DNA of 64,000 nucleotides from an uncultured virus (IMG/VR IMGVR_UViG_3300012347_000246) (IMGVR_UViG_3300012347_000246), one strand, 5' to 3'; positions 1,348-18,648 are shown, counted from the first letter of the stretch. Numbers and translations are program-made. The notes: generated by a model from the sequence alone, not told the origin.

Positions 1348-1350
1348 AAA

Positions 1351-1502: not shown

Positions 1503-1519
1503 CTTCTTATACGTATCTA

Positions 1520-1593: not shown

Positions 1594-1610
1594 CAGTTAT
1601 TTAGAAATTT

Positions 1611-1888: not shown

Positions 1889-1893
1889 CAAAT

Positions 1894-1958: not shown

Positions 1959-1977
1959 CTACTGTTGAAAACAAACT

Positions 1978-2062
1978 TGGTGCGGATGGTCGGACTCGAA
2001 CCGACACGCCTTTCGGCGCTAGAACCTAAATCTAGTGCGGCTACCAATTACGCCACATCCGC
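1978..2062 (-). tRNA. tRNA-Leu(TAG)
   Basis: Full cloverleaf, long variable arm, CCA. Confidence 0.95.
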
Positions 2063-2070
2063 TTAGATAA

Positions 2071-3808: not shown

Positions 3809-3811
3809 GTA

Positions 3812-4092
3812 TCTATAAAGAGGTGGAGCATATAAAACTTATTTTTCAACCGTGGACTGATGCACGGCCGGTAGCTATCCGGCTCGCTTCGTAAGCTCAA
3901 ACGGGTAATTGCCATGCCCTAACTTACACATCTTCTCAGAGTCTCAATAATTCGCGATTTTAAAATCCATTTGTTGCCTCGGAGGTTTCCGATATTTGAT
4001 CACGGGCCACTATTCTCAGGCAAGAAAGATCGCTACTAAATCTACCACAGGTAATAAGTCACTGCCTTGTGTATGCTCCACCTCTTTATAGA
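3812..4092 (-). ncRNA. ncRNA or leader candidate bounded by a perfect 21-bp inverted repeat
   Basis: tctataaagaggtggagcata (3812-3832) / tatgctccacctctttataga (4072-4092); promoter directly upstream. Confidence 0.55.
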
Positions 4093-4106
4093 CAAATTGT
4101 TGAGTT

Positions 4107-4134
4107 ATTATAACAAAATTTGAATTTAAGTCAA
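4107..4134 (-). promoter_or_regulatory. Sigma70 promoter
   Basis: TTGACT-16-TATAAT with TGn. Confidence 0.7.
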
Positions 4135-4141
4135 CTGGAAT

Positions 4142-5335: not shown

Positions 5336-5362
5336 TAGTTGTTGACGTTAACACTATTTATA

Positions 5363-5436
5363 TGGTGCTCCTACAAAGAATCGAACTTTGGATTACGCTA
5401 TACCACAGCGTCGGTATGCCATTTACCTATAAGAGC
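5363..5436 (-). tRNA. tRNA-Thr(GGT), atypical loop bases
   Basis: ACGCT-GTGGTAT-AGCGT, T arm, CCA. Confidence 0.8.
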
Positions 5437-5437
5437 T

Positions 5438-5514
5438 TGGTGCCCCGGGCGAGACTCGAACTCGCAAAATTTGGATTTTGAATCCAACACGTATACCAAT
5501 TCCGTCACCGGGGC
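5438..5514 (-). tRNA. tRNA-Leu(CAA) with short variable loop
   Basis: TTGGA-TTCAAAA-TCCAA, Leu-type D arm, CCA. Confidence 0.9.
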
Positions 5515-5518
5515 AGGA

Positions 5519-6727
5519 TTAGTTGGTGCGTACTGCAAATACTTCTTGAAAGGACTCTCCCCTAATCACATCATATTTTTTTGTATAATCAAAAAATGCT
5601 ATTGGATCATGCGGGGTTGATTCAATTAGCCCCTTCTTTACATTTAACAACTCTGTACGCAATACTAGATAATTTGGCGCAGTTAAAATCTCTACCGATT
5701 TATCAATTTCAGTGATTGCTTTACTTCGTAGCTGCTTTGGTAAATTGTTAAAATGCATGCCAGGCGGCGAAGTCACATTGTAACATTTTATACCAATTGA
5801 TGCATTTTCATTGTATAGTTTCATTAGAAAAGAGGCAAGTGCAGAAAAGTCCATTAAACTATATGCAGATATAGCAGTGGTCACTTCTAAATTAAATGGA
5901 GCAGGCAACTGATTTAATTTAAGAACATTACTTTCGACTTTAGGCCAATCAGTGCCGCTGCGAATATATTCCGCAGATTTTCCTACTGCGTCAATGCTCA
6001 TTACTAACTCTACTTTTTTAAACTCACTAAGTCGAGTAATAAAAAGTGGATTATACACACTACAATTGGTATATAACTCTAACTCCATATTCCTACTAAA
6101 CCCATTGCTAATTAAGTAGTCTAGATAGTCGTAATATTCTTTTATCAAAAATGGTTCGCCACCGGTTAAACATACCTTTCGAACTGACGCCAACAACGAC
6201 TTGTCCTTGAGACTTTCAATTACCGCAGGGTCTGCTTTAGTTATTGGAATTATACTGTGCTCGAGATGACTTCCGGCTTTATCCGGCTTGATCTTATGTT
6301 CAATTTTTTCTGCTGCAAAGCTGGAACTAGATGTTTCATCGCACATCCTGCATTTCATATTACATAGATTGCTAAATCTAAGTTCAATTCTTGTTGGTAC
6401 TGTTGGACTGTCAGCAGTAAACTTGTTTGCAAACCACTGGTCTTCATACTCAGGTTCGGGTCCTACATTGTAGTAATTCCAAATTGCTCCGCGTGTGCTT
6501 TTTAGTCCATGACGCTCACGCTCTTTGCAACCAGAACATGCAGCAGGAACGATCCCTTGCTGCATTTCTTGTTTTATATTCTTGAGCCATTCGCTATTAA
6601 AATAATCAGACGGGGTTGCTTCCATCTCTAAATTTTTAATCATGTGACACGGACTGGGCGAGTTAGCATGGTAATACAACAATGACCACGGGGCAGGACA
6701 GAAGAACTTCTCCGAAAACTTTGCCAT
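5519..6727 (-). CDS. Radical SAM protein with N-terminal twitch/SPASM-like Cys domain
   Basis: CPAPW...CSGC, CNMKCRMC, TGGEP; start moved to the ATG at 6727 (AGGAG RBS) because the longer ORF overlaps a tRNA. Confidence 0.9.
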   Translation of the reverse strand: MAKFSEKFFCPAPWSLLYYHANSPSPCHMIKNLEMEATPSDYFNSEWLKNIKQEMQQGIVPAACSGCKERERHGLKSTRGAIWNYYNVGPEPEYEDQWFANKFTADSPTVPTRIELRFSNLCNMKCRMCDETSSSSFAAEKIEHKIKPDKAGSHLEHSIIPITKADPAVIESLKDKSLLASVRKVCLTGGEPFLIKEYYDYLDYLISNGFSRNMELELYTNCSVYNPLFITRLSEFKKVELVMSIDAVGKSAEYIRSGTDWPKVESNVLKLNQLPAPFNLEVTTAISAYSLMDFSALASFLMKLYNENASIGIKCYNVTSPPGMHFNNLPKQLRSKAITEIDKSVEILTAPNYLVLRTELLNVKKGLIESTPHDPIAFFDYTKKYDVIRGESFQEVFAVRTN

Positions 6728-6742
6728 ACTACTCCTATAATT

Positions 6743-6818
6743 TGGTGCCTCTAACCGGGGTCGAACCAGTGACACACGGATTTTCAATCCGCTGCTCTAC
6801 CAACTGAGCTATAGAGGC
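6743..6818 (-). tRNA. tRNA-Phe(GAA)
   Basis: Canonical cloverleaf, CCA. Confidence 0.95.
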
Positions 6819-6917
6819 AAATTTTAAATGGTTGTGGGTTTTTACCACTCCTGAACCTTGTTCCACCGCTCGGTCAAAGACTTATGTGGCGATCCCGTGC
6901 AGCTCGCATTACACTAT

Positions 6918-7038
6918 ACCATATAGAAGCACTCTCAAATGCAGGCCTAGGAGGAGTCAAGCTCTGAAACCGTTGCGTATGCATCCACTAAGGTCTCTTC
7001 TCCCGCTTTGTCTTATGCTAAGAATACTTCTATATGGC
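6918..7038 (-). repeat. Conserved-stem RNA cassette 4 (85-nt payload)
   Basis: Arms accatatagaagcactct (6918-6935) and agaatacttctatatggc (7021-7038); compensatory changes. Confidence 0.85.
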
Positions 7039-7137
7039 GGTGCATAAGTTAACCTAAAACTAGTCTAATATCGCGGCCGCAATATTTCGTCTATGTCTTA
7101 GGATATACACGTTGGTACCTTGCGTACCTTACGCACC
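7035..7137 (-). ncRNA. CCA-ended stem-bounded small RNA candidate
   Basis: GGTGCGTAAG ... CTTATGCACC-GCCA. Confidence 0.5.
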
Positions 7138-7237
7138 ATATAAAAACACACTACGTGGAATCGAACCACTGACCCTTTCACTCCGTAGAGACCGCATTAA
7201 TTACGCTTAGTCGCCGACTAGTATGTTTTTATATGGT
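7135..7237 (-). repeat. Conserved-stem RNA cassette 5 (67-nt payload with T-arm)
   Basis: Arms 7135-7152 and 7220-7237; payload contains GTGG-TTCGATT-CCAC. Confidence 0.9.
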
Positions 7238-7345
7238 GACAGTTTAGTCCGATAACTGTCAAAGAGTTGTTGTAGTTTGCTCTAGAAACAACATACATTT
7301 GGTCGTCATGACCGGGCACTCCACGTTTGAGCCTTCTGGTTAGAT

Positions 7346-7421
7346 ACCATATAGAAGCACACTAACCATCATTGGTACTGTTTGCAACCAGTACGGATTT
7401 GAAAATGTGTTTCTATATAGG
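7346..7421 (-). repeat. Conserved-stem RNA cassette 6 (40-nt payload)
   Basis: Arms 7346-7363 and 7404-7421. Confidence 0.85.
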
Positions 7422-7505
7422 CTCCACCGTTAACGACAGCATTCGTCCTGGCTTTATTTTATGTCGGTTAATGCACGGTGGACACACATGCCGACGGGGT
7501 TACAG

Positions 7506-7644
7506 TTTCAATGATGGGATTCGAACCCACTAACTACCCGTGCGATGCGGGTTGTGCTACGCTCGCCATACATTCAGTTTACTCCGTTACGTACCGGACC
7601 AATTGTATGACTTTGCACTATCTTTCCATGTCGTCTTCATTGTT
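7506..7644 (-). ncRNA. tRNA-like element with expanded D region
   Basis: CAATG/CATTG acceptor-like pairing; ACCCG-CATCGCA-CGGGT arm; GTGGG-TTCGAAT-CCCAT; no CCA. Confidence 0.45.
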
Positions 7645-7730
7645 ACCATATAAAAACATACTGCTGGCTATGCCCTTGGCGTCCCAGAAGCTATCAGAGT
7701 CTAACTGAATGCAATATGTTTTTATATGGT
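7645..7730 (-). repeat. Conserved-stem RNA cassette 7 (50-nt payload)
   Basis: Arms 7645-7662 and 7713-7730. Confidence 0.9.
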
Positions 7731-7827
7731 CGGTGCAGGTGAAATCGCATCACCGAGCCAAGTTATGTCTTTTGTACATTATGCACAGAACTCGCTGAGG
7801 CTTCCTCAGTACCTAGGATATGCACCA
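7727..7827 (-). ncRNA. tRNA-shell RNA with CCA
   Basis: TGGTGCA / TGCACCG-A-CCA acceptor; GGTGA-TGCGATT-TCACC T-like arm; non-tRNA interior. Confidence 0.55.
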
Positions 7828-7905
7828 TATGTAAACACACTATTAGTTTCGCCATCATCCGACTTTAAAATCAGCTGCGGTTTAAATAATGTGTTTGCAT
7901 ATGGT
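7824..7905 (-). repeat. Conserved-stem RNA cassette 8 (46-nt payload)
   Basis: Arms accatatgtaaacacact (7824-7841) and aatgtgtttgcatatggt (7888-7905). Confidence 0.9.
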
Positions 7906-7977
7906 GGGACTGTTCGGGCTCGAACCGAAAACCTACCGGTTAAAAGCCGGTTGCTCTAACCATTGAGCTACAATCCC
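7902..7977 (-). tRNA. tRNA-Lys(TTT)
   Basis: Canonical cloverleaf, CCA. Confidence 0.95.
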
Positions 7978-7980
7978 GTA

Positions 7981-8054
7981 TGGTCCTCCGCCTAGGTATC
8001 GATCCTAGTTTTACTGGTTAAGAGCCAGTTACATCACCTTAATGTTTGCGAAGG
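7981..8054 (-). tRNA. tRNA-Lys(CTT), atypical D and T arms
   Basis: ACTGG-CTCTTAA-CCAGT; T loop ATCGATA; CCA. Confidence 0.75.
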
Positions 8055-8139
8055 TTGGTGTATTAAATTTTAGTTTAACGTGCCAACCTTAGACCAATAC
8101 GGGATCTAAAGTTGACACTAACGTTTACCACGTTTCATG

Positions 8140-8271
8140 TCATTCACCTTTGTCAAATTTTCTACCACTCTTCTTACTCTTCACACCTATTGTGAATAGT
8201 ATCTTCTTACCAAACCCTGCACGATATACTCGACAGTCATGGTATGTACGCTTAGAACCAAATGCTCGCAT
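8140..8271 (-). CDS. Small basic protein, 43 aa
   Basis: AGGAG RBS; MRAFGSKRTYHDCRVYRAGFGKK...; below the ORF-track cutoff. Confidence 0.5.
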   Translation of the reverse strand: MRAFGSKRTYHDCRVYRAGFGKKILFTIGVKSKKSGRKFDKGE

Positions 8272-8280
8272 TGCCTGCTC

Positions 8281-8763
8281 CTACATGTTTCTAAATTGAA
8301 TTGTACGCCAGGCTTCAGGATCGGGTTGTTCATTCTCATCGTATGTCCAACCTAGTGCCTTCATCATCTTGTGCTTAACACGCAAGTTAGGTATACGTGT
8401 ACGTTCAGTATCACTGAACCCCATCATGATTCCAACTTCTGCTACTGCACCACTGCGACATAAGCCAGCCATACAGTGTACTACAACATTCATTTTATTG
8501 TCAAGTGCATGTTGAAGTAGTTTCACTATTTCATTTGCTTGTTCGTCTGTAATTTTAGCTTCGTCCGGAAACCCATCTTTATCTTCGGCATCTAAAAACT
8601 CGAAACGATGTGCTTCCTTAAAAGTGTGTGCAGGTGTTGGCCACCAACTCGGACACGGATCCATAATTTGAATCAACATAGAATTGTCCCCAGCATCATG
8701 ATGCAATTTCATCGGTACATCGGCTGCTGCTACGTTTTCAATCCAAGGCATTTTATTCTCCAT
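8281..8763 (-). CDS. Cys-based (PTP/dual-specificity) phosphatase
   Basis: VVVHCMAGLCRS CX5R motif. Confidence 0.85.
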   Translation of the reverse strand: MENKMPWIENVAAADVPMKLHHDAGDNSMLIQIMDPCPSWWPTPAHTFKEAHRFEFLDAEDKDGFPDEAKITDEQANEIVKLLQHALDNKMNVVVHCMAGLCRSGAVAEVGIMMGFSDTERTRIPNLRVKHKMMKALGWTYDENEQPDPEAWRTIQFRNM

Positions 8764-8803
8764 TCTGCATTATAACATCGATTCTATTATAACGCAAGAG
8801 TAT

Positions 8804-8880
8804 TGGTCGGTCCTGAGGGACTCGAACCCCCAACCTACGATTTCGAAGACCGGAACTCTATCCAGTTGAGCTAAGGACCG
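8804..8880 (-). tRNA. tRNA-Arg(TCG)
   Basis: Cloverleaf, loop CTTCGAA, CCA. Confidence 0.9.
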
Positions 8881-8993
8881 AGGTGAAGGTTTTAATGGTG
8901 CCGGGATTACCTTCAACCCCGTGTACACAGCCCATCCCACGTTTCGTGTACAGCGGACGCTGATATCTTCTCTTGCGAGTTAGTGGGTCAGCG
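8881..8993 (-). ncRNA. Three-hairpin small RNA candidate
   Basis: CGCTGA/TCAGCG, TGTACAC/GTGTACA and TGAAGGT/ACCTTCA stems. Confidence 0.45.
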
Positions 8994-8995
8994 AA

Positions 8996-9601
8996 TTACA
9001 TTGTAGGCGCAGAACCATTGCCGTAAACTTCTTCACGACGTTTCATACCCACAGTGCCACCCTCTGCTTCAATACGTTTGATAACGTCTTCAAACAAGAT
9101 AGGCGCAAAGTTAGTGTGCTCTACACATACACAATGGTATCGTGGATCGATAATTTCACCACCGTAGCCATTTGATTTCATTACACGACGATCATGTAAG
9201 TGACCGTGAATGTTAACACCAAAGCGACCTAACGACGATTCATGTAAAGGGATATGACTCAAGATCATTCCGTTCAATACATGATACCCACGCACATCAC
9301 GAAAGTGTTCGGTATATTCCTCTAAGCGAAAAATATCGTGGTTGCCTTTGATTAACACCTTGTCGCCATTTAGGCGGCGCATGATGCCTAATGCTTTACG
9401 GTTAATAACAACGTCACCTAAGTGATATACTTTGTCATTTGGGCGCACTGTGTCATTCCAACGGCGCACCATTTCTTCGTCCATTTCGTCAGGATTGTCC
9501 CACGGACGCAATTTTACGTTAGGGTCATCTTTACTCATAAACTTGCAGACACCCATGTGCCCGAAATGAGTATCACTGACTAAAAAACTTGCCGGCATCA
9601 C
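8996..9601 (-). CDS. Calcineurin-like metallophosphoesterase
   Basis: SDTHFGH, HLGD, GNHD, HGHLH motifs. Confidence 0.9.
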   Translation of the reverse strand: MMPASFLVSDTHFGHMGVCKFMSKDDPNVKLRPWDNPDEMDEEMVRRWNDTVRPNDKVYHLGDVVINRKALGIMRRLNGDKVLIKGNHDIFRLEEYTEHFRDVRGYHVLNGMILSHIPLHESSLGRFGVNIHGHLHDRRVMKSNGYGGEIIDPRYHCVCVEHTNFAPILFEDVIKRIEAEGGTVGMKRREEVYGNGSAPTM

Positions 9602-9678
9602 AGCCTCCTTATTACTCTATAAAGTACATACATTATAACACCAATTACAATTAAAGCCATTGCATGTACTCCTAATTT

Positions 9679-9755
9679 TGGTGCCCTGGGAGAGACTCGA
9701 ACTCTCAGCTTACGGCTTCTTAGACCGCTGCGTTTACCAATTTCGCCACCGGGGC
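9679..9755 (-). tRNA. tRNA-Leu(AAG) with short variable loop
   Basis: GCGGT-CTAAGAA-GCCGT; Leu-type D arm; CCA. Confidence 0.85.
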
Positions 9756-9770
9756 CTGATAAATAAACTT

Positions 9771-10325
9771 ATGAACTACGATAAATTCCGCCAACTCTTA
9801 AGTCTGTTTGAAGCCCGCAATCCTGATCTCGAATACCAGGAAACTGAGAAGCAAGTTATTGCTATCCTTAGAGGATCTAACAGCCAAGTATTCACCAAGC
9901 TAGCACAAAAAGTTGAACGCATTAGTCAACTTGAAGCAGAACTAAAAATCCTCAAAGAAGAAGTTAAGCAAAGCACTAGAGACGATGTAGCTGCATTGTT
10001 TAATGCAGAAGATGGCGCTAAAACTCGTATTATTCAAACTCTAAGTTTTATCTTGCAACTAAGCAAAGATCCAGAAGAAACTAAATCTCCAAAGTACAAG
10101 GACATCCTTGCTGTACTCGAAACCAAGTTAACTCCAGAGCTAATCAAAGTTCTTGAAGAGCTTAAAAAGACTATGGTTACTGTTACACAAAAAGAAGCAG
10201 GTCTTAAAATCAAGCCACTCGACGAAGGACAAGACGCAATGCTGTTCAATCGTTTAAACGAGTTAGTTCAAGACTGGGGCCAACGTTATGACCAAAAGCT
10301 AAACGCATTAATGCAACAGGTATAA
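9771..10325 (+). CDS. Hypothetical coiled-coil protein
   Basis: ATG just after an ATAAATA late motif; the longer ORF overlaps a tRNA. Confidence 0.75.
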   Translation: MNYDKFRQLLSLFEARNPDLEYQETEKQVIAILRGSNSQVFTKLAQKVERISQLEAELKILKEEVKQSTRDDVAALFNAEDGAKTRIIQTLSFILQLSKDPEETKSPKYKDILAVLETKLTPELIKVLEELKKTMVTVTQKEAGLKIKPLDEGQDAMLFNRLNELVQDWGQRYDQKLNALMQQV

Positions 10326-10327
10326 TC

Positions 10328-10747
10328 ATGAAGATCAAACCATTAAAAGAATATATCCGCGAAGCAGAAGTTGCGGACCGCCCACCAGAACTAGCAAAGC
10401 CTCCTGTGGGGCAGCAACAAGAAAAGCCAGCCGATAAACCAGGTGGTTTTACTGTTATGATTCTTAACGATGGTATGACGCCAGCTGAAGTAGTTATTGA
10501 AGCTATTGTTAGCGTAACTGGAATGAGCTCAGACGCTGCATTCACTAAAATGATGCGAGCACACCAAGGCGGATGGGCGCCAATTAAATCATATGCCAGC
10601 AAAGACGTTGCCGAGACTATTGCACATGGCATTATGCGTCATGCACAACAAAATGATCGCTACGATCATTATCGTCAACACCCACACTTCCGTAACTTTA
10701 AAGGCCCCTGGCCTCTTACTGCCGAAGTAATGGATGCTGCTCAGTAA
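10328..10747 (+). CDS. clpS: ClpS-like Clp protease adaptor
   Basis: VMILNDGMTPAEVV...MMRAHQGG...KDVAET matches the ClpS core. Confidence 0.8.
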   Translation: MKIKPLKEYIREAEVADRPPELAKPPVGQQQEKPADKPGGFTVMILNDGMTPAEVVIEAIVSVTGMSSDAAFTKMMRAHQGGWAPIKSYASKDVAETIAHGIMRHAQQNDRYDHYRQHPHFRNFKGPWPLTAEVMDAAQ

Positions 10748-10749
10748 TT

Positions 10750-10823
10750 TGGGGTGAAGCCGGGAATCGAACCCTGGTCCCTTGTTTCACAGACAAGTAT
10801 TCTACCACTGAACTAGCGACACC
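10750..10823 (-). tRNA. tRNA-His(GTG)
   Basis: G-1, loop CTGTGAA, C73, CCA. Confidence 0.9.
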
Positions 10824-10935
10824 ATAACGGCACTAAGGGCTTTCCTCTCAAGCGTGTGCCACACATATAACAGTAAACTATTTCTCATCTGTTATACATC
10901 CCAGTTGACTGCTGGTTCAGTGAAAATAGTTTTGA

Positions 10936-11047
10936 GTTAATGCGATGGGATTCGAACCCAACCATCCCGCCCGGTTTCGCTAGTTACTTGCCCTGCAAGG
11001 CTTTCCCTAGGTACTCGGGGCCGGTATGCCAGCCAGTACATCTCACA
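10936..11047 (-). ncRNA. tRNA-like element with expanded anticodon region
   Basis: TGTGA/TCGCA acceptor-like pairing; GGG-TTCGAAT-CCC; no CCA. Confidence 0.45.
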
Positions 11048-11084
11048 ACCTGTCGTTCAGTCTTGCAGGACCTCCCGAGCAGTC

Positions 11085-11513
11085 TCAAAAGTCTTCTGTG
11101 ATTTGACGTAGATCTTCTATGTTTTCTACGCTGCCGTCTTCGTTATATTTCACTGATCCGCCGTAGTATCCATTGTGGCTATTACGCACTTCAATGTCAA
11201 TGTACCCACGATCAGTTTTGATAGTCCAGAACGCATCCTGGACCACTTCGTGTCCTTCTTCTTCGTGATCCTCACCCCAACCTTTGTCTTCAACACCGGT
11301 TACTAGTGCCCCACGTAATAGATCAAAGCTGTTGCCTTCACCCAAGATAGTAACGCCGTTAATGTGGTTGAACCACACGCTGTTGCAGCAATCATTTTCG
11401 GTATCATAGCGATGAAACTTACCATCGATGGTTCTAACCACCAACGCCCAGCTATCATTACCCAGGAAAATACCGTTAATACGTTGTCCAACTAAATTTT
11501 TAAAAACGCTCAT
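11085..11513 (-). CDS. Hypothetical phage protein
   Basis: Clean ORF; DCC and HNGYYGG motifs seen in phage proteins. Confidence 0.75.
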   Translation of the reverse strand: MSVFKNLVGQRINGIFLGNDSWALVVRTIDGKFHRYDTENDCCNSVWFNHINGVTILGEGNSFDLLRGALVTGVEDKGWGEDHEEEGHEVVQDAFWTIKTDRGYIDIEVRNSHNGYYGGSVKYNEDGSVENIEDLRQITEDF

Positions 11514-11728
11514 TGCTGCTCCTTGCAGTTATTATACTGCTTTATTCTTTTTGAGTTGTTGTACAACTCCAGATTGTAGTCAAGTAATTCCCCTGGAATC
11601 GATTCACTTGTACACACGTTACAGACGTTCTTTTTAAAGCCTTTAACATATGGTCCGGTTTCGGGCCGAAAGGTGTATGTAACTACTTTAGTATCTTCAG
11701 ACCCACAGTATGCACATGAATGTTTCAT
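11510..11728 (-). CDS. YgiT/MqsA-type zinc-finger protein without HTH domain
   Basis: CAYC...YTFR...VKG...CNVC; AGGA RBS. Confidence 0.65.
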   Translation of the reverse strand: MKHSCAYCGSEDTKVVTYTFRPETGPYVKGFKKNVCNVCTSESIPGELLDYNLELYNNSKRIKQYNNCKEQQ

Positions 11729-11739
11729 AAAGTCCTTAA

Positions 11740-11816
11740 TGGTATCTCTGGCAGGAGTCGAACCTGCTACCCCTAAGTTCGTAGCCTAGTGCTCTATCCA
11801 GATGAGCTACAGAGAT
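11740..11816 (-). tRNA. tRNA-Arg(ACG)
   Basis: Cloverleaf, loop CTACGAA, CCA. Confidence 0.9.
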
Positions 11817-11828
11817 AAATATTTTACT

Positions 11829-12371
11829 ATGACACAACTATTCACCGAAACCGCAAGACACCATTCAAACAGCATAAGTCGTGCTAATCCAAATTGGCGC
11901 AACGACTCAGTTTACGCTTTCTATAAAAGCAACGGAGAAGTGCTAACTTTAGCTGAGTTAGTAAATAGTTTAAACCCGCAATCTGTCCTTGATTTTGGGT
12001 GCGGCAACGGGTTAGCATTACCTTCAATTGCAGGAGTTAATGCAAAAGGGTACGATCCATTTGTAGACGAATTTTCTACTTGGGAACCTGCTGTGTATGA
12101 TTTAATAGTGTCGCATTTTGCAATTTTGCACGTCGAAGATCAATTCTTCAGCGACACAATTAAAATGTTACGTAATGCATGTGGTAAAAATTTTGTTGCC
12201 ACGTTTGCTCTTACTAAACATATACCACATCGCGATACTGAATGGTATATTAATCATCTTAAATCCCACTTTACCATTGACGACCAGTACACTAGTGCGC
12301 CAATAGAATGGACTGATTCCAACAATGTTACTACTACAAAGCAAATAGTAACCATATGGTGTTCAGTTTAA
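11829..12371 (+). CDS. Class I SAM-dependent methyltransferase
   Basis: VLDFGCGNG, GYDP, YDLIV; start after ATAAATA. Confidence 0.8.
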   Translation: MTQLFTETARHHSNSISRANPNWRNDSVYAFYKSNGEVLTLAELVNSLNPQSVLDFGCGNGLALPSIAGVNAKGYDPFVDEFSTWEPAVYDLIVSHFAILHVEDQFFSDTIKMLRNACGKNFVATFALTKHIPHRDTEWYINHLKSHFTIDDQYTSAPIEWTDSNNVTTTKQIVTIWCSV

Positions 12372-12376
12372 GTTAT

Positions 12377-12453
12377 TGGTCCGTGTGACACGATTCGAAC
12401 ATGCGACCACCTGGTCCCAAACCAGGAGCTCTACCAGGCTGAGCTACACACGG
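12377..12453 (-). tRNA. tRNA-Pro(TGG)
   Basis: Cloverleaf, CCA. Confidence 0.95.
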
Positions 12454-12460
12454 ATAATTT

Positions 12461-12536
12461 TGGTGGAGGTAAGGAGGATCGAACTCCTGACCTTTAGCTT
12501 GCAAAGCTACTGCTCTCCCAGCTGAGCTATACCCCC
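12461..12536 (-). tRNA. tRNA-Ala(TGC)
   Basis: Cloverleaf, G3:U70, CCA. Confidence 0.95.
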
Positions 12537-12543
12537 ACTATGC

Positions 12544-12617
12544 TGGTGCCCCATAACAGAATCGAACTGCTATCCCCGGATTACAAAACCGGTGTTCTAC
12601 CATTTAACTAATGGGGC
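12544..12617 (-). tRNA. tRNA-Thr(TGT)
   Basis: Cloverleaf, CCA. Confidence 0.9.
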
Positions 12618-12704
12618 GAAATGCTTCCAACTGTGACCTTACGCTCTCTCCGTTGGCGATTGAGCAGCCGACATTCTTAAAGTCTTCTCGGAACTGACTT
12701 AAAT

Positions 12705-12780
12705 TGGCTCCCCAGCGTGGGATCGAACCACGGACACCTTGATTAACAGTCAAGTGCAACTACCGCTGTGCTACTGGGGA
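12705..12780 (-). tRNA. tRNA-Asn(GTT)
   Basis: Cloverleaf, GCCA. Confidence 0.95.
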
Positions 12781-12788
12781 ATGATACA

Positions 12789-12817
12789 ATTATATATGAC
12801 AAACATTACCTTGTCAA
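12789..12817 (-). promoter_or_regulatory. Consensus sigma70 promoter
   Basis: TTGACA-17-TATAAT. Confidence 0.85.
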
Positions 12818-12824
12818 TAAATTT

Positions 12825-12899
12825 TGGTAGCCATGGACAATTTCGAAATGTCGACCTAACGCTTATCAAGCGTTTGCTCTTCCTCTGAGCTACACGGCT
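12825..12899 (-). tRNA. tRNA-Ile(GAT)
   Basis: Cloverleaf, loop TTGATAA, CCA. Confidence 0.9.
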
Positions 12900-12914
12900 A
12901 AAAATAAATACAGT

Positions 12915-13118
12915 ATGAGTAAACCCAATCCAGGATTTGAAGAATTACAACAGCTCGGTTACGGAACATACCGCAACACTGTGAGCTATTCGTGCATCAA
13001 AGATTTCACTCTTACATATGCTAAAAAGACTAACGAGCTTTTTGTCCCCGACGGTCTTCCTAAACAAATTGGCAGGGGTAATCGGATTCGAACCGATGAT
13101 ACTAATTTCAAAGACTAG
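12915..13118 (+). CDS. Small hypothetical protein; 3' end antisense to tRNA-Gln
   Basis: ATAAATA-CAGT-ATG start like other plus-strand late genes. Confidence 0.45.
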   Translation: MSKPNPGFEELQQLGYGTYRNTVSYSCIKDFTLTYAKKTNELFVPDGLPKQIGRGNRIRTDDTNFKD

Positions 13119-13147
13119 TGCTTTAGGCCAGACTAAGCTATACCCCA
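13070..13147 (-). tRNA. tRNA-Gln(TTG)
   Basis: Cloverleaf, GCCA. Confidence 0.9.
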
Positions 13148-13160
13148 ACAAAATTAACCT

Positions 13161-13235
13161 TGGTACTGAGTACGGGAATCGAACCCGTCTTTGCGACTTG
13201 AAAGGCCACCGTCCTTACCGATAGACGAACCCAGT
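13161..13235 (-). tRNA. tRNA-Glu(TTC)
   Basis: Cloverleaf, CCA. Confidence 0.9.
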
Positions 13236-13243
13236 ACAAAAAT

Positions 13244-13319
13244 TGGCGCCTCGTAGGGGTTTCGATCCCCTTGCCTCTACAGTGACAGTGTAGTGCTCTC
13301 CCGATTGAGCTAACGAAGC
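13244..13319 (-). tRNA. tRNA-Asp(GTC)
   Basis: Cloverleaf, loop CTGTCAC, T loop ATCGAAA, GCCA. Confidence 0.9.
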
Positions 13320-13586
13320 ATATAAAAGCAATAGCGTTACTGCAAACAGAATGAACTGAGTGGCTCGCACTATCGCGGATGTTTGTGTTAAGTTGTTTGC
13401 CGCACAACCATAACAAAGCGGGGGTCTGTGTTTGTCAACAATTTATCTCATTATACGCCGCTGACAAGGGCGAGGCTCAGTAGCAGCATTAAACAATACT
13501 GCAAAATTTGTGGAAGTTCCGATAGCACCCATCGTCACTTACAACCGTTGAGTAACCATGCATCAAAACAAGATTACTATTTGCTC

Positions 13587-13672
13587 TGGTGGAGGCGACT
13601 GGAGTTGAACCAGTAGTGTCATAAGACGGCGGATTTACAGTCCACTGGGGTTACCAATTTTCCTACACCTCC
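13587..13672 (-). tRNA. tRNA-Tyr(GTA)
   Basis: Cloverleaf with long variable arm, CCA. Confidence 0.95.
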
Positions 13673-13681
13673 AAAAACTTT

Positions 13682-13783
13682 ACCATATGTAAACACACTA
13701 GCGTTTTACGATAAACTACGCTCCCGAGTTTCTGCTCAGGACCCCATAGGTTTGCCTATGTTTCTAATGTGTTTGCATATGGT
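13682..13783 (-). repeat. Conserved-stem RNA cassette 9 (66-nt three-hairpin payload)
   Basis: Arms identical to cassette 8 (13682-13699, 13766-13783). Confidence 0.9.
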
Positions 13784-13877
13784 GTAGTAACTGAGAGTTG
13801 AACTCAGAACGAATACTGTCATTTTACAATGGGTAATATTACCTCCCACCGCTGTATGCCCCTCGGATAATTACTTC
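13780..13877 (-). ncRNA. tRNA-shell RNA with aberrant anticodon arm
   Basis: GAAGTAA/TTACTAC-A-CCA; CTGAG-TTCAACT-CTCAG; extended central stem with no 7-nt loop. Confidence 0.6.
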
Positions 13878-13922
13878 CTACTCACATACAGGCACAGTCG
13901 TTACGCCTGTTTACCACAAACT

Positions 13923-13998
13923 TGGTACTGCGTATGGGAATCGAACCCATCTTACTAACGTGAAAGGCTAGTGTCCTAAACCGATAGACGAACGCAGC
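13923..13998 (-). tRNA. tRNA-Glu(TTC), second copy
   Basis: Cloverleaf, CCA. Confidence 0.9.
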
Positions 13999-14044
13999 AT
14001 TATTTCTAACATGTGTGTATTGTAACACACTTCTTCTTTTATTT

Positions 14045-14121
14045 TGGCGACCCCGAAAGGATTTGAACCTCTGACATTTGGTTTTGGAGACCAACGTTCT
14101 GCCGGACTGAACTACGGAGCC
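14045..14121 (-). tRNA. tRNA-Trp(CCA)
   Basis: Cloverleaf, loop CTCCAAA, GCCA. Confidence 0.95.
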
Positions 14122-14129
14122 ACTAAACA

Positions 14130-14205
<76 letters not shown>

Positions 14206-14215
14206 ATCTGATTCT

Positions 14216-14306
14216 TGGCGGAGACCGTGGGAATCGAACCCACTCACCTGCTCATCACAAGTGTACACCTTAGCAGGGTGCTGCATTACCGGCCTGCCCG
14301 GTCTCC
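14216..14306 (-). tRNA. tRNA-Ser(GCT)
   Basis: Long variable arm, GCCA. Confidence 0.9.
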
Positions 14307-14361
14307 AATGTTCTATTGTTACATACATTTAGATATGTGTCAACAGATATTTTTAAAAATT

Positions 14362-14453
14362 TGGCGGAAAGCAGAGGAGTCGAACCCCATCCCCGTTAAG
14401 AGAACCTGGTTTTCAAGGCCAGTCGCAGGACCATCCCCGCTGCATTACTTTCC
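14362..14453 (-). tRNA. tRNA-Ser(TGA)
   Basis: Long variable arm, enlarged D arm, GCCA. Confidence 0.85.
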
Positions 14454-14458
14454 ATATT

Positions 14459-14534
14459 TGGTGCCACGAACTGGAGTTGAACCAGTGACGCATAACTTTT
14501 CAGGCTATCGCTCTACCAACTGAGCTACCGCGGC
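14459..14534 (-). tRNA. tRNA-Phe(GAA), second copy
   Basis: Cloverleaf, CCA. Confidence 0.95.
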
Positions 14535-14542
14535 ATATTGTT

Positions 14543-14627
14543 TGGTGGAGTTTGTCAGGGCTTTCACCTGATACTGCCCACGTGAGTTACACGCAGTTTC
14601 GTCCTATATGTTACGTATTCAAACCCC
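14543..14627 (-). ncRNA. Ala-identity tRNA-like RNA resembling the tmRNA tRNA-like domain
   Basis: GGGGTTTG/CAAACTCC-ACCA with G3:U70; TCAGG-TGAAAGC-CCTGA; no standard D or anticodon arm. Confidence 0.6.
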
Positions 14628-14630
14628 AAA

Positions 14631-14769
14631 TAGGTTTTTGAGAGCCCAACTATCCTTCGGCAGGACTCACTGGATTGTCTCGTATGGGCAAGTTTAAACT
14701 ACCATAGCTGCAATGTGGCTTTGTCACATACCAGACGATATGCTATGCACTATGGGACTCAAACCCTAC
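14631..14769 (-). ncRNA. Stem-bounded RNA candidate
   Basis: TAGGGTTTGAGTCCCA pairs imperfectly with TGGGCTCTCAAAAACCTA. Confidence 0.4.
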
Positions 14770-14784
14770 GTCTATCTCAAAACT

Positions 14785-15038
14785 TGGCTTCGTTAGCAGG
14801 ACTCGAACCTGCGATAAGGGGCTTAAAATCGCGTATGCTGGGTGCCCCCCGTGTTTCCCAAAGTTACCCTCACATCCCCTCAATGCCTTATCTTACGTTC
14901 AAATAGTTAGACCTGTTCCGCACTTCCCGGACTCACAGTGTTTGGTTTTAAAGCCTACGCGATTGTTATCTAACTATCATACTAGCACATTATCTCATCT
15001 ACTCAATGCTACTCTACCTTCCTCTACACTATAACGAA
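14785..15038 (-). ncRNA. 254-nt tRNA-shell RNA
   Basis: Perfect acceptor TTCGTTA/TAACGAA-GCCA and T arm GCAGG-TTCGAGT-CCTGC around ~200 nt of foreign sequence. Confidence 0.65.
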
Positions 15039-15045
15039 ATAAACT

Positions 15046-15121
15046 TGGTGGAAATAAGAGGGGTTGAACCTCTGACCGTCAACGTATGAAGCTGCTGCTC
15101 TACCAACTGAGCTATATTTCC
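15046..15121 (-). tRNA. tRNA with CAT anticodon (Met or Ile2)
   Basis: Cloverleaf, loop TTCATAC, CCA. Confidence 0.9.
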
Positions 15122-15200
15122 AAATAAAACCCTTAAGGTTTCCGGCACTGGGCTCGGACATACGATAGAATCAGTATCTATATATGATCGTCATCCTTAA

Positions 15201-15279
15201 GGTATTCATAAACAAACTAGTGGGACGCTGCCAAAATTATATAACATATACTGATTCGTCTAGTTTGTTTGTGAATACC
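15201..15279 (-). repeat. Divergent conserved-stem cassette (20-bp stem, 39-nt payload)
   Basis: ggtattcataaacaaactag / ctagtttgtttgtgaatacc; shares the taaaca.act core. Confidence 0.55.
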
Positions 15280-15442
15280 CTGTATTTCTACAGGATATGT
15301 TAGGGTCGATACCCTAACCAGTTATTTGTACTCTGCTGTTACCGCCAGCATTTCATCCAACTGTCCGCCCGTTTAAAGATTATTATAGTGTTCTTTCAGG
15401 TCCTCGTTACCTGGCCATATAGGTCTTATTAACACTGTTAAA

Positions 15443-15601
15443 CTATGCGTAAGTTCGATTCAACTGTTTGCGTTTGTCAAATTCGATTTGAGCACGTTCC
15501 AACTTGTCCTGAATCAACTGTTTACGTTGTTCTGGGGTTAGTTCATTTTCAGTTACAAACCTTACCTCACGCATACGTTTTCTTAAATCAATCTTCTTCA
15601 T
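15443..15601 (-). CDS. Small basic helical protein, 52 aa
   Basis: AAAGGA RBS; MKKIDLRKRMREVRFVTENELTPEQRKQ... Confidence 0.6.
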   Translation of the reverse strand: MKKIDLRKRMREVRFVTENELTPEQRKQLIQDKLERAQIEFDKRKQLNRTYA

Positions 15602-15615
15602 AATTCCTTTTTACA

Positions 15616-15650
15616 AAACAAAAAACCCTGGGTGTTTAGTCCAGGGTTCT
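15616..15650 (-). terminator. Intrinsic terminator, putative attenuator
   Basis: AACCCTGG/CCAGGGTT stem followed by TTTTGTTTT. Confidence 0.8.
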
Positions 15651-15672
15651 TAAGTTTGTAAGTTACTTGTTA

Positions 15673-15822
15673 TTAACAGTAACCATCTCCCTCTCGAACC
15701 CCAATTCCAAATCCCTCTGAACTGCGATCACTTTTATTAATTGCAATCGTAGACCACAAGGCTGGCATGCCTAGTGTGGGCTGTTGTTGTTTGCAATAAT
15801 GATTAAAAGTGTTGTTCATCAT
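15673..15822 (-). CDS. Putative leaderless leader peptide, 49 aa
   Basis: ATG 7 nt after the -10 box; stop ~22 nt before the terminator. Confidence 0.5.
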   Translation of the reverse strand: MMNNTFNHYCKQQQPTLGMPALWSTIAINKSDRSSEGFGIGVREGDGYC

Positions 15823-15829
15823 AGTACCT

Positions 15830-15858
15830 ATTGTATATTTATTTACCTTTCGTGTCAA
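15830..15858 (-). promoter_or_regulatory. Sigma70 promoter with overlapping TAAATA late motif
   Basis: TTGACA-17-TACAAT; spacer contains GTAAATAAATA. Confidence 0.8.
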
Positions 15859-15897
15859 CCACGAACTGTAATTTATTTACCTTTTTCTTAAATTTAT

Positions 15898-17034
15898 TTA
15901 TGATCCGAGATCATAAAACTTACTTGACAAGCGTTTAACGTTAGCATTTCCGGCCCACGTACCCAATTTGTGTTGTTGCGGCAATGTGTTCCAAAGATGC
16001 TCTATTCCAACTTTCCACGCATGCTTTGCAGCATCGCTATCTGGTAGTTTAAAAAACCACTGATCTCTCGGAGAGTGTATCAGTGACATCGGTTTAACCT
16101 GAAAGTCAACTGGTTTCCACCCCGGGTAAACAATGCTGTTTAATAGCTCTATTGTAAGCCATTTAACTTTTTTGTCAACCACTGTGCTGTTCATAAAGAT
16201 TCTTTCTTTATCCTGGCTCAGCCCTTCTGCTTTCTTTAAAAAGTTTTTAACTGCATGTCCTTGCTTGGTCAGCAACTTAACGCAGCTTGGATCCCAATAA
16301 AATAATTCATTGTGATCCCACTCATCATTCTTTGATTGTACAGCACTACTTACTGCATTGTCAACCGAGTCTGTGAATTTAAAGTAATAATTTTTTCCAA
16401 ACCCGTGTACCATTGGTTTTTCGAGCCCGTAAATGAATCCTACCCGTTTTCCACTTTCTATTAAACGCATCCAGTGCGGCACTGTTTGTTTAATTACTTG
16501 TTTTACTGCTGAATTAGGGTTAACAAAATTGTTTAACCCGTATACCCATTCACTTGCGGATTGCTTACTAAAATAATCTACAGTAGGCTGAGCAATGTCA
16601 ACTAATGTGTGCTGCATCCACGGCTGCTGCTGCTTTGCTACAGAAACCTTTGGTACCGCTACATTGTAAATCTCACCATTTAACCAATCTTCTTTGCTTC
16701 CAGTGGCAGCAAAGTTCACTAGACTTGCACATTCGTCTAGCCTAATGTTGTTGGTTACGAACGTATGTAGTATGTTGTCTGAGTCGCTACCACCGCTGTA
16801 CCACAAAACCAAATAATCGTATTTGTCTCGAAGCTGTTGGGCTCGTTCGCGATACAACTCTTCTAAACTCTCAATCGGTTCCACGGACCAGTCATGTAAC
16901 CCGAACTCCACATCATTAAAATGCCAACTAACTTTTTGATTAGTCCGGATACTAAATTCAATTGCTTCTAGCTTACTGTAGAACTTTACTAACCCTACTA
17001 GATAGTACCCAAATTTATCCTGCCTATTATTCAT
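15898..17034 (-). CDS. PP-loop protein, paralog 2
   Basis: LYRERAQQLRDKYDYLVLWYSGGSDS. Confidence 0.8.
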   Translation of the reverse strand: MNNRQDKFGYYLVGLVKFYSKLEAIEFSIRTNQKVSWHFNDVEFGLHDWSVEPIESLEELYRERAQQLRDKYDYLVLWYSGGSDSDNILHTFVTNNIRLDECASLVNFAATGSKEDWLNGEIYNVAVPKVSVAKQQQPWMQHTLVDIAQPTVDYFSKQSASEWVYGLNNFVNPNSAVKQVIKQTVPHWMRLIESGKRVGFIYGLEKPMVHGFGKNYYFKFTDSVDNAVSSAVQSKNDEWDHNELFYWDPSCVKLLTKQGHAVKNFLKKAEGLSQDKERIFMNSTVVDKKVKWLTIELLNSIVYPGWKPVDFQVKPMSLIHSPRDQWFFKLPDSDAAKHAWKVGIEHLWNTLPQQHKLGTWAGNANVKRLSSKFYDLGS

Positions 17035-18188
17035 AGCCCAATGTTATATACTTTTTCAAAATTCTTAAGCCCATAAGACAAGACTTTGTTACGTTTGTAC
17101 TCATCTGGTACTACTGCCCACATATGCTCTAATCCAGTACGCCAGTTCGCAATCTCGGCAGAATGTTCCGACATACCATAAAACCAATCGTCCCTGTAGG
17201 TAAAAACAATAGATATCGCTTTGAACTGATAGGGTTCAAGTTTCCACTTAGGGTACACAAGTTTATTAACCATATTTAAATCGAGCCATCGAACTTTTTT
17301 GTTAATAACTGTGAAGTTCCCAAACGCCTTGTCAACCCTGTTGTCGGTTAACCATTCCTCGTCTCCTGTGGCTGATTTTAAAAAATTTTTAATCACATGA
17401 GCCTGTTTAATCATTAACGGCACACAATCCGGGCTCCAATAAAACAACTCAACGTTTTCTCTAGGATCGTTATTACGCTGCACTTGCGGACTTACTACGC
17501 GGTCAAACATATCAAAGAATCGCACCTGATACCCAGACGACGACCAAGCAATACAAGGTTTATCAATTCCGTATATAAATCCAACTTTTTTACCACTGTC
17601 CATTAACTTTACCCATTCAGGGACTTTAAGTCTCGAGTCTTGACTAGTCATGCTGTAGGGATTAAAGAATGCGTTCATATTATACGCCCAGTCTATGGAT
17701 TTTTTATCTTTAAAGAAATCCATGGTATATGCTGGAACATCAACTAAGCGGTGTATTAACCAAGGTTGTTTAACCTTGACTTCTTCAATTTTCGGAACTG
17801 TTACTTTGTAAATTTCCGCATTTAATCTGTTTGTTTGGTTGCCAGTTGCTTCGTAGTTAACTGCTCCAACCACTTCGTCTAGTTTGATATTGTTATCAAC
17901 AAACGTATCCAAAATATTTGTGCTGTCGGCGCCGCCGCTGTACCACAAAACCAAATAATCGTATTTGTCACGAAGCTGTTGGGCTCGTTCGCGATACAAC
18001 TCATTCAATGACTGTGTAGGTTCTACCTTCCAATTGTATGCACTAAATGCCTGGTCGTTAAAGTTCCAATAAACTTTTGATTGGGTCTTTGCTGCAACCT
18101 CTAATGCCTCGACTTTGCTGTAGAATTTTAAATTATCAACAGTATAAAATCCGTAAGCATCTTGTCTTGATGTAGGTGTAAGGAACAT
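17031..18188 (-). CDS. PP-loop protein, paralog 3
   Basis: LYRERAQQLRDKYDYLVLWYSGGADS; start trimmed to avoid tRNA overlap. Confidence 0.8.
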   Translation of the reverse strand: MFLTPTSRQDAYGFYTVDNLKFYSKVEALEVAAKTQSKVYWNFNDQAFSAYNWKVEPTQSLNELYRERAQQLRDKYDYLVLWYSGGADSTNILDTFVDNNIKLDEVVGAVNYEATGNQTNRLNAEIYKVTVPKIEEVKVKQPWLIHRLVDVPAYTMDFFKDKKSIDWAYNMNAFFNPYSMTSQDSRLKVPEWVKLMDSGKKVGFIYGIDKPCIAWSSSGYQVRFFDMFDRVVSPQVQRNNDPRENVELFYWSPDCVPLMIKQAHVIKNFLKSATGDEEWLTDNRVDKAFGNFTVINKKVRWLDLNMVNKLVYPKWKLEPYQFKAISIVFTYRDDWFYGMSEHSAEIANWRTGLEHMWAVVPDEYKRNKVLSYGLKNFEKVYNIGL

Positions 18189-18191
18189 TGT

Positions 18192-18283
18192 TGGTAGGAG
18201 TGGCCGGAATCGAACCGACATTGGCCAATTATCTGTTGCACACGGGATATAAATCCGCTGTTTTACCGTTAAACTACACTCCC
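18192..18283 (-). tRNA. tRNA-Ile(TAT) with long variable region
   Basis: GCGGA-TTTATAT-CCCGT; ~21-nt variable region; CCA. Confidence 0.7.
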
Positions 18284-18343
18284 ACTAAATCAGTGAGTTA
18301 TATGTATTCGTTTAAAAGTAAAATGATTCATATCTTTAAAATT

Positions 18344-18429
18344 TGGTGCGACTGGCCGGAATCGAACCGGCACGCCATTACAGCGTCAGATTTTAAGTCT
18401 GATGTGGCTACCAATTACACCACAGTCGC
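18344..18429 (-). tRNA. tRNA-Leu(TAA)
   Basis: Long variable arm, CCA. Confidence 0.95.
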
Positions 18430-18440
18430 ATAAGTTTTCT

Positions 18441-18469
18441 ATTATAGCTGGTAAGTTTATTTATGTCAA
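18441..18469 (-). promoter_or_regulatory. Consensus sigma70 promoter
   Basis: TTGACA-17-TATAAT. Confidence 0.85.
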
Positions 18470-18489
18470 CTTGCCTAGCATTTTTATTT

Positions 18490-18567
18490 TGGTGCGACTG
18501 GAGGGACTCGAACCCCCGACCTACTGGGTAGAAGCCAGCTGCTCTAATTCCACTGAGCTACAGTCGC
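18490..18567 (-). tRNA. tRNA-Arg(TCT)
   Basis: Cloverleaf, CCA. Confidence 0.95.
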
Positions 18568-18572
18568 ATGTT

Positions 18573-18648
18573 TGGTGCGCCCACTTGGATTTGAACCAAG
18601 GGCCAAAGGATTATGAGTCCTCTGCTCTTACCGCTGAGCTATAGGCGC
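18573..18648 (-). tRNA. tRNA with CAT anticodon, probably Ile2 (lysidine type)
   Basis: GACTCATAATC arm resembles bacterial ileX-type tRNAs. Confidence 0.85.

Follow-up and report, generated by a model that had tools for sequence, protein, structure and literature searches.

A candidate leaderless leader-ORF attenuator ahead of a transfer RNA array in an uncultured freshwater giant phage

The window analyzed here, a 64,000-nt stretch of DNA from an uncultured virus (IMG/VR IMGVR_UViG_3300012347_000246), represents part of the genome of an uncultured giant tailed phage from freshwater, and an IMG/VR record of 62 kb identical to it is rated 18% complete. It encodes a 1089-residue tail sheath protein, a large terminase and 30 transfer RNA (tRNA) genes, the latter all on the minus strand. 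Upstream of 26 of these tRNA genes (785-15121) and downstream of the other four (18192-18648) lies a putative transcription switch, all features of which are also on the minus strand: a promoter, a short open reading frame (ORF) termed ORF-A and an intrinsic terminator, followed by a second small gene (ORF-B) and a structured RNA (RNA X). The nearest record (G001) is identical over the switch region and thereby uninformative for conservation, and near and distant BLAST searches with 15200-16000 found no match among 50,697 phage records.

In the direction of transcription, the module begins with a −35 hexamer TTGACA (15853-15858) and, after a 17-nt spacer, a −10 hexamer TACAAT (15830-15835), which together match the consensus at 11 of 12 positions. 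Seven nucleotides later, ATGATG from position 15822 opens ORF-A (15673-15822; codons 15822-15676, TAA at 15675-15673), a leaderless frame of 49 codons that encodes all 20 amino acids. Codons 40-43 contain the 5′ strand of a predicted antiterminator, UUGGGGUUC (15696-15704), which can pair with the 5′ arm of the terminator: GGGGTTC at 15702-15696 faces GAACCC(T) at 15649-15643, and the helix is extendable to 9 bp, UUGGGGUUC:GAACCCUGG, with three G-U pairs. Part of the same antiterminator is an inner hairpin, GGUUAC...GUAACU (15661-15684), with the stop codon in its loop. The terminator itself (15612-15649) comprises the 5′ arm GAACCCUGG (15649-15641), a loop, the 3′ arm CCAGGGUU (15631-15624) and a U6-G-U4 tract; its stem, AACCCTGG (15648-15641) and CCAGGGTT (15631-15624) around a 9-nt loop and followed by T6-G-T4, has a folding energy of −12.4 to −13.4 kcal/mol. 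A preliminary description of this locus had named the promoter with an ATG at the expected start site, the leaderless 49-codon frame using all 20 amino acids, the terminator behind it and the GGGGTTC-GAACCC pairing, and each of these is present in the window. Taken singly, they are only mildly unusual: a scan of 10 kb found 23 promoter-like sites against 22.1 expected, a random 49-residue peptide contains all 20 amino acids with a probability of 2.7%, and 18 of 500 dinucleotide shuffles match the duplex energy of the window. We judged the module to be above chance because every item is conserved in relatives.

Related loci were reached by three independent routes: a neighboring gene, a DNA pattern within the ORF and the terminator pattern. 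The upstream 378-residue gene used as bait yielded 80 metagenome and two viral loci, nine of them with the module. The DNA pattern led to 46 viral loci, comprising 43 with the small ORF, one false hit in a large gene and two unrelated loci. The terminator pattern retrieved 38 loci, in 26 of which a leaderless ORF ends just before the terminator (12 of these were new); the remainder consisted of four with a family ORF that was cut or missed by the filter and eight in which the terminator follows ordinary coding sequence. The 41 unique ORFs on which most counts below are based were collected by DNA pattern, not by gene calling. At the protein level, a HMMER search of 1.84 billion representative proteins with a seven-peptide profile gave 51 hits (E ≤0.001), 48 of which have 39-66 residues, the cluster of the window included; a word-indexed search with the ORF-A peptide returned its own cluster only, and the family surfaced in the full profile search. 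No second copy of the ORF-A family was found in the window or among 83 loci, and ORF-A matches no Pfam or PHROGs family. Conservation of the layout in related phages, which the preliminary description had set as a check, was borne out, in that the promoter-ATG arrangement, the open frame, the helices and the composition are all kept across the relatives. By this comparison of about 50 related loci, the module is a conserved device rather than a chance arrangement.

The leaderless start is the first element maintained in the family. In 49 of 52 related modules, near-consensus −35 and −10 hexamers are separated by a spacer of 17-18 nt, and the ATG follows the −10 hexamer at a distance of 6 nt (n = 16), 7 nt (n = 15), 9 nt (n = 14) or 10 nt (n = 4). 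The bases in this gap vary (AGGTACT, ACAAAC and others), and therefore no Shine-Dalgarno (SD) sequence is conserved. Among the three exceptions, one module is cut by a contig end and two, L065 and L068, possess a leader of about 60 nt. Within the window, a near-consensus promoter with a start codon 5-10 nt downstream and an ORF of more than 25 residues occurs three times, and only ORF-A lies in the tRNA region; none of the other promoters of that region in the window has such a start codon and ORF. Leaderless initiation is not the general style of this phage within the window, and ORF-B is preceded by an SD sequence. A second TTGACA-18-TACAAT element lies inside the 378-residue gene (16364-16335, minus strand), with ATGATG 6 nt later and a 19-codon ORF in another frame.

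Analysis of the 41 unique ORFs revealed no stop codon in the ORF frame, whereas the two alternative frames hold 185 and 174. The distances between conserved anchors (46/49/52/55, 44-59 and 24-54 nt) change in steps of three, except for two isolated values (31 and 73), and the gaps in a DNA-only alignment fall in multiples of three. Furthermore, conserved Ser, Arg and Pro codons differ in their third base. The frame noted for the window is open in 41 of 41 unique sequences, with its ATG fixed at the promoter and indels in multiples of three, a pattern that argues in silico for a translated leader ORF.

The encoded peptides' amino-acid composition is a further shared feature. Among the 41 DNA-derived peptides, 19 contain 20 different amino acids, 18 contain 19 and four contain 18. 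The 47 small representatives from the profile search, which are <50% identical to each other and some of which carry extra N-terminal residues from the start choice of the gene caller, contain all 20 in 36 cases and 19 in the other 11. By comparison, random peptides with the composition of the window proteome are complete in 0.4% (38 residues) to about 5% (54 residues; 4.7% of trials). In a column-preserving shuffle, the mean number of different residues was 18.61 versus 19.37 observed, and 7.4 peptides were complete versus 19 observed; none of 5000 shuffles reached either observed value, a contrast that is inflated by the relatedness of the sequences. Cys occurs in seven different alignment columns and His in five, which suggests that their presence rather than their position is maintained. 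Five divergent leaderless ORFs at the same switch contain 20 different amino acids in 42 residues, 19 in 42, 18 in 45, 18 in 43 and 17 in 30, and ORF-B, for comparison, contains 15 in 52. Given these counts, the reservation that the all-20 composition may be chance, raised in the preliminary description, can be set aside, and the comparison identifies a complete or nearly complete set of amino acids as a family trait. The first five relatives, two of them without Cys, had favored chance, which the family counts reversed, and the statement that all 20 are always present fails here, as the incomplete peptides contain 18 or 19.

The terminator follows the stop codon at 19-31 nt in 51 of 51 modules with enough sequence, with a folding energy of −12 to −16 kcal/mol (median −14.2). 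At this distance a terminating ribosome should be too far away to melt it. Its 3′ arm is always GGGUUU, which pairs with any purine. An alternative hairpin, which starts in the 3′ end of the ORF and closes with the 5′ arm of the terminator, has a folding energy of −15 to −31 kcal/mol (median −24) and beats the terminator in 39 of 39 unique sequences. Two designs of this antiterminator can be distinguished. Short ORFs of 38-46 codons contribute their final codons and stop as the 5′ strand of a nearly perfect hairpin of 18-20 bp, whereas long ORFs of 47-54 codons, the type of the window, display an outer helix of 7-10 bp around the inner hairpin. The antiterminator strand is located within the last 1-10 codons of the ORF, and the stop codon lies inside the structure in either design, in the 5′ strand of short ORFs and in the inner loop of long ones. 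In all 39 unique sequences, the predicted antiterminator and terminator are mutually exclusive, and a ribosome on the ORF would occupy one strand. RNAfold placed the antiterminator in the minimum-energy structure of window transcripts ending at 15641, 15633 and 15624, and the terminator once the U-tract was included.

The pairing seen in the window covaries in relatives. The outer helix occurs as GGGUUC:GAACCC, GGGUCC:GGACCC, GGGUCU:AGACCC and GGGUUU:AAACCC. In an anchored pair table of 38 unique sequences, position GGG+2:CCC−2 is U-A in 17, C-G in 19 and U-G in two, with no mismatch, and position GGG+3:CCC−3 is U-A in 14, C-G in 21 and C-A in three. None of 10000 permutations reached the observed pairing; as the table is anchored on pairing and leans towards it, and the sequences are related, this result is not a probability. 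L038 was omitted from the table, its best duplex being at a non-homologous site and its homologous site having one A-A mismatch. In the long-ORF class, a MAFFT/RNAalifold analysis set the GGG motif one base out of register and recovered only six pairs, and the anchored table was used instead; for the short-ORF class, a structure-blind alignment gave 18 pairs, seven with compensatory changes. Where GGGUYC is preserved at the nucleotide level in shifted frames, the peptide reads GV, GF or RV, which points to selection on the RNA. The same switch design recurs at the five divergent leaderless ORFs, whose peptides are unrelated. Ordinary protein genes are closed by this 27-nt terminator sequence as well in eight of the 38 loci (L131, L137, L141, L142, L147, L148, L152 and L159), and the sequence appears in RNA contigs with many different flanks, as a shared, re-used cassette.

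These elements enable us to propose a putative model of the switch. Host RNA polymerase with sigma-70 is assumed to start at the AUG or within about 3 nt of it, which would let a ribosome engage ORF-A once the 5′ end is exposed. The final codons of this ORF would serve as the 5′ strand of the antiterminator, and the 5′ arm of the terminator as its 3′ strand. A ribosome that keeps pace to the end of ORF-A would melt or cover the antiterminator, the terminator would form, and transcription would stop 20-30 nt past the stop codon. With no ribosome, or with a ribosome held at a codon whose charged tRNA is scarce, the antiterminator would form first and the polymerase would read through into ORF-B, RNA X and the tRNA genes. 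Since ORF-A holds every amino acid, or nearly every one in its relatives, the device could detect a shortage of nearly any charged tRNA. The structural part of the attenuator reading put forward in the preliminary description, namely the leaderless start, the open frame, the covarying antiterminator and the near-complete composition across peptides <50% identical, is conserved, and the module probably acts as a leaderless leader-ORF transcription attenuator by which general translation capacity is tested and lagging ribosomes cause read-through. We infer the size as well as the direction of the response to tRNA shortage; the predicted direction, in which an absent or late ribosome gives read-through, follows from the geometry and agrees with the analogous upstream ORF (uORF) of whiB7 described below.

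Classical attenuators such as trpL, hisL and pheL consist of a promoter, a short leader ORF and an antiterminator and a terminator that share a strand, and the position of the ribosome decides between the two. The present module shares the promoter, the short leader ORF, the shared strand and a decision taken during transcription. However, the likeness to trp and his drawn in the preliminary description does not extend to the narrow sense of that type. The ORF-A peptides have no codon run for a single amino acid and contain 18-20 different ones, and no clear anti-antiterminator (1:2) is seen, so an untranslated leader should read through instead of being super-attenuated. Unlike those leaders, moreover, ORF-A is leaderless, at 38-54 codons its family is longer than most of them, and it matches no Rfam leader family. 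Leader-ORF attenuators for translation inhibitors, for example B. subtilis vmlR, control bacterial resistance genes and respond to drugs at particular codons. As in that type, the leader ORF of the module would register when translation slows in general and thereby disable a terminator, whereas its composition points to aminoacyl-tRNA supply and its targets are phage RNA genes.

The closest functional parallel is the mycobacterial whiB7 uORF (PMC10274678). There, stalling is reported to let an antiterminator form and transcription pass the terminator, with many amino acids sensed; the M. smegmatis uORF encodes every amino acid but Cys, its composition was shown by mutation to decide which starvation is sensed, and loss of its start codon raises basal read-through and expression. 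The two systems have in common the leader-ORF logic and the complete or nearly complete set of amino acids. In contrast, the phage device precedes a small protein, RNA X and tRNA genes instead of a transcription factor gene, its ORF is leaderless at a sigma-70 consensus promoter, and its peptides show no Ala enrichment (Ala makes up 6.2% of the pooled residues). The resemblance appears to be functional only, drawn from anatomy and not from a sequence relationship. Our search of the open-access full-text literature and bioRxiv, papers on freshwater jumbo phages included, found no description of such a switch. Leader-ORF attenuation of the whiB7 kind is already known; what is new is that the device sits in a phage and starts leaderless, that amino-acid completeness is a family trait, and that the targets are RNA and tRNA genes.

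Downstream of the terminator lies ORF-B (15443-15601), a conserved small protein of 52 residues whose SD sequence AAGGA starts 10 nt past the U-run. Its family comprises charged proteins of 46-60 residues with the motif L-T/S-x-E-Q-R/K...K-L/V-x-R-A, is under purifying selection, and matches no Pfam or PHROGs family. Of 39 unique modules, about 29 have a homolog behind the terminator, nine others go directly to the conserved RNA, and one is cut. No consensus-like promoter is present between terminator and ORF-B, so that this SD-led gene, lying directly behind the terminator, is predicted to need read-through for its expression. RNA X (core 15248-15417; wider region 15122-15442), a structured non-coding RNA of about 170 nt between ORF-B and tRNA-Met, was detected after the switch in 50 loci by nhmmer, always on that side of it and just ahead of the first tRNA. 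The consensus fold comprises 29 pairs, of which 20 show compensatory changes, and the RNA carries invariant single-stranded motifs such as AACGAGG and AAACGGGCGGAC. No covariance model of Rfam 15 matched 15122-15860 at E ≤1; at E ≤10, the only credible match over 14530-15460 was tRNA-Met, the others being chance-level microRNA or small nucleolar RNA hits far below the gathering scores. tRNA-Met (15046-15121) is the first tRNA past the switch. The tRNA genes come directly after RNA X in the window and in L003, L004 and L031; in L065 the distance is at most about 40 nt.

This arrangement corrects the preliminary description, which had the RNA array directly after the terminator; ORF-B and RNA X intervene before tRNA-Met at 15121. 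Its statement that the switch lies upstream of most of the tRNA genes holds, with 26 of 30 downstream, but their dependence on it was overstated. Further evidence on transcription comes from RNA libraries, available as assembled contigs of four runs, which show neither ends nor strand and in which carry-over of DNA is possible. A contig spanning 15385-15709 crosses the terminator, which is evidence of neither regulation nor a single transcript, and contigs cover 15351-15415, the 5′ half of RNA X. The segment 15869-16400 has no RNA contig cover, which proves nothing.

What the phage would gain is a more tentative matter. It is conceivable, though we hold it as a doubtful extension of the model, that continuous test translation of an all-amino-acid mini-gene detects the loss of usable tRNA, and that the answer is read-through into RNA X, ORF-B and the tRNA island. 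Such loss may follow when the phage shuts off its host, when a new host does not match its codons, or when host anticodon nucleases and other defenses attack tRNAs.

Several observations weigh against the attenuator model or narrow it. Two RNA contigs reach upstream of the predicted transcription start site (15642-15859 at depth 2.5 and 15704-15847 at depth 6.2); contigs extending past this site are either transcripts or carried-over DNA that includes the promoter. In L065 and L068 the ORF stands behind its leader of about 60 nt and is not leaderless. Residues are absent from some of the 41 DNA-derived peptides: Cys from 20, Val from four and Phe from two. Once the U-tract and downstream bases of the window are included, the terminator fold is the more stable (−28.6 versus −23.8 kcal/mol, each forced), and therefore the outcome would be kinetic. 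The codons of ORF-A are not enriched for those read by the phage tRNAs of the window (38 of 49, versus 81.5% in long ORFs). Promoter-like sites occur inside the array at 14343, 12817 and 11200, so many tRNAs need not depend on read-through, and the first read-through products are a small protein and RNA X, not the bulk of the tRNAs. Finally, W23 and R33 are invariant and G18 and D32 at least 90% conserved among 40 sequences, which exceeds what a pure speed test needs, and L136 encodes LG..YWS by different codons. These conserved residues may leave room for a peptide function or a nascent-chain effect.

Four other explanations were weighed against these data. The module could be a timer of ribosome availability or infection stage, sensing how promptly leaderless initiation occurs, as set by free 70S ribosomes, initiation factors and competition from phage mRNA, instead of aminoacyl-tRNA supply; amino-acid diversity would then be secondary. 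The leaderless start of 49 of the 52 modules, by which the race opens with initiation, speaks for such a timer, as do the antiterminator being the default fold when no ribosome is present and the reported read-through of whiB7 after start-codon loss (PMC10274678). Yet it leaves unexplained why 19-20 amino acids are kept in peptides of 39-66 residues that are <50% identical, and L065 and L068 retain the device despite their 60-nt leader. We regard this explanation as unlikely.

We give still less credence to the view that ORF-A is a plain gene for a small functional peptide, equipped with a promoter and terminator of its own, and that the hairpin around its stop codon merely tunes translation or mRNA stability. 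The retention of W23, R33, G18, D32 and the motif AYWS...DR.PE across 40-50 divergent members would fit such a gene, and so would the conservation of amino acids with changed codons in L136 and the use of the same terminator to close ordinary genes in eight of 38 loci. Substitution patterns point the other way: the ratio of nonsynonymous to synonymous substitution rates (dN/dS) of ORF-A in close relatives is 0.5-1.3, versus 0.02-0.29 for ORF-B, and the entropies of the three codon positions are nearly flat (0.87, 0.87 and 1.00). Judged from these values, the constraint on the ORF-A peptide is weak overall. Nor would a plain protein gene account for the covarying overlap with a hairpin arm, the all-20 composition or an SD-led ORF-B behind the terminator, and the missing Pfam and PHROGs relationship gives it no help. 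AlphaFold models of 40 family peptides (mean predicted local distance difference test score 59.5, predicted template modeling score 0.13) show no confident fold and neither support nor exclude a folded peptide.

Arrest peptides that control downstream genes are known, for example TnaC, and in a sensor of this type the Trp, Asp-Arg and Pro-Glu residues of ORF-A would stall the ribosome when a small molecule is present or the exit tunnel is in a certain state, and would thereby set the switch. The fixed spacing of W...DR.PE before the antiterminator strand is consistent with this. However, a stall at DR.PE, 4-8 codons before that strand, would give read-through with no new logic and could coexist with the attenuator model, and the all-20 trait would be unexplained; as a replacement for that model we consider it very improbable. 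Least credible of all is a non-coding RNA of about 200 nt with an incidental ORF: the transcript has a more stable fold than its shuffles (z = −3.24, 0 of 200) and is strongly conserved at the nucleotide level, but the frame data, that is, no in-frame stop and indels in threes only in ORFs found by DNA pattern, contradict it by sequence comparison, the ATG is fixed at the predicted transcription start, and amino-acid completeness belongs to translation and not to RNA.

Besides the switch, ORF-A contains an internal hairpin, CAC-U-AGGC / 6-nt loop / GCCU-U-GUG (15755-15776), over the L-G-x-x-A-L/Y-W codons. L008, L004, L038 and L068 retain its stem around loops that vary. Compared with the upstream 1:2 (pause or anti-antiterminator) element of trp- and his-type attenuators, it is a conserved hairpin that does not pair with the antiterminator strand and whose stem shows no covariation in the sample. 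It is a possible pause or synchronizing element; the conservation of this region is partly at the peptide level, because L136 encodes LG..YWS with other codons.

Three paralogous proteins (15898-17034, 17031-18221 and 4142-5335, minus strand), with identities of 48% and 28-33%, are encoded among the tRNA genes and share an SGGxDS motif, a putative PP-loop ATP-pyrophosphatase signature with no supporting Pfam hit. The first of them (15898-17034) has 483 relatives in metagenomes, and the upstream proteins of 378 and 396 residues match no PHROGs or Pfam family. Between tRNA-Met and tRNA-Phe, a 510-nt gap (14535-15045, minus strand) has no called gene and carries a T-arm-like motif, GCAGGTTCGAGTCCTGC, at 14812-14796; ARAGORN and Rfam call nothing there except a weak permuted transfer-messenger RNA (tmRNA) hit (E 4.8), and 14900-15050 is covered by RNA contigs whose summed depth is high (118-146). 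In L065 (925-1362) and L068 (1633-2051), ARAGORN calls a phage-encoded tmRNA with a tag peptide ending in ALAA or AIAA, some 3 kb upstream of the switch.

In summary, this analysis bears on the reason for large tRNA sets in phages and the timing of their use, for which codon compensation and evasion of tRNA-targeting defenses are cited as current ideas (PMC13573597). If the attenuator model is true, it would be the first regulatory logic described for phage tRNA islands, coupling read-through to the speed of ribosomes on an all-amino-acid ORF, and ORF-B and RNA X would be tied to translation stress. Because the promoter is a sigma-70 consensus, reporter tests of this tRNA-island question would be simple. 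The model would also extend general translation sensing of the whiB7 kind from mycobacteria to viruses, and phage tRNA expression would then be a feedback-controlled counter-measure instead of a constitutive supplement.

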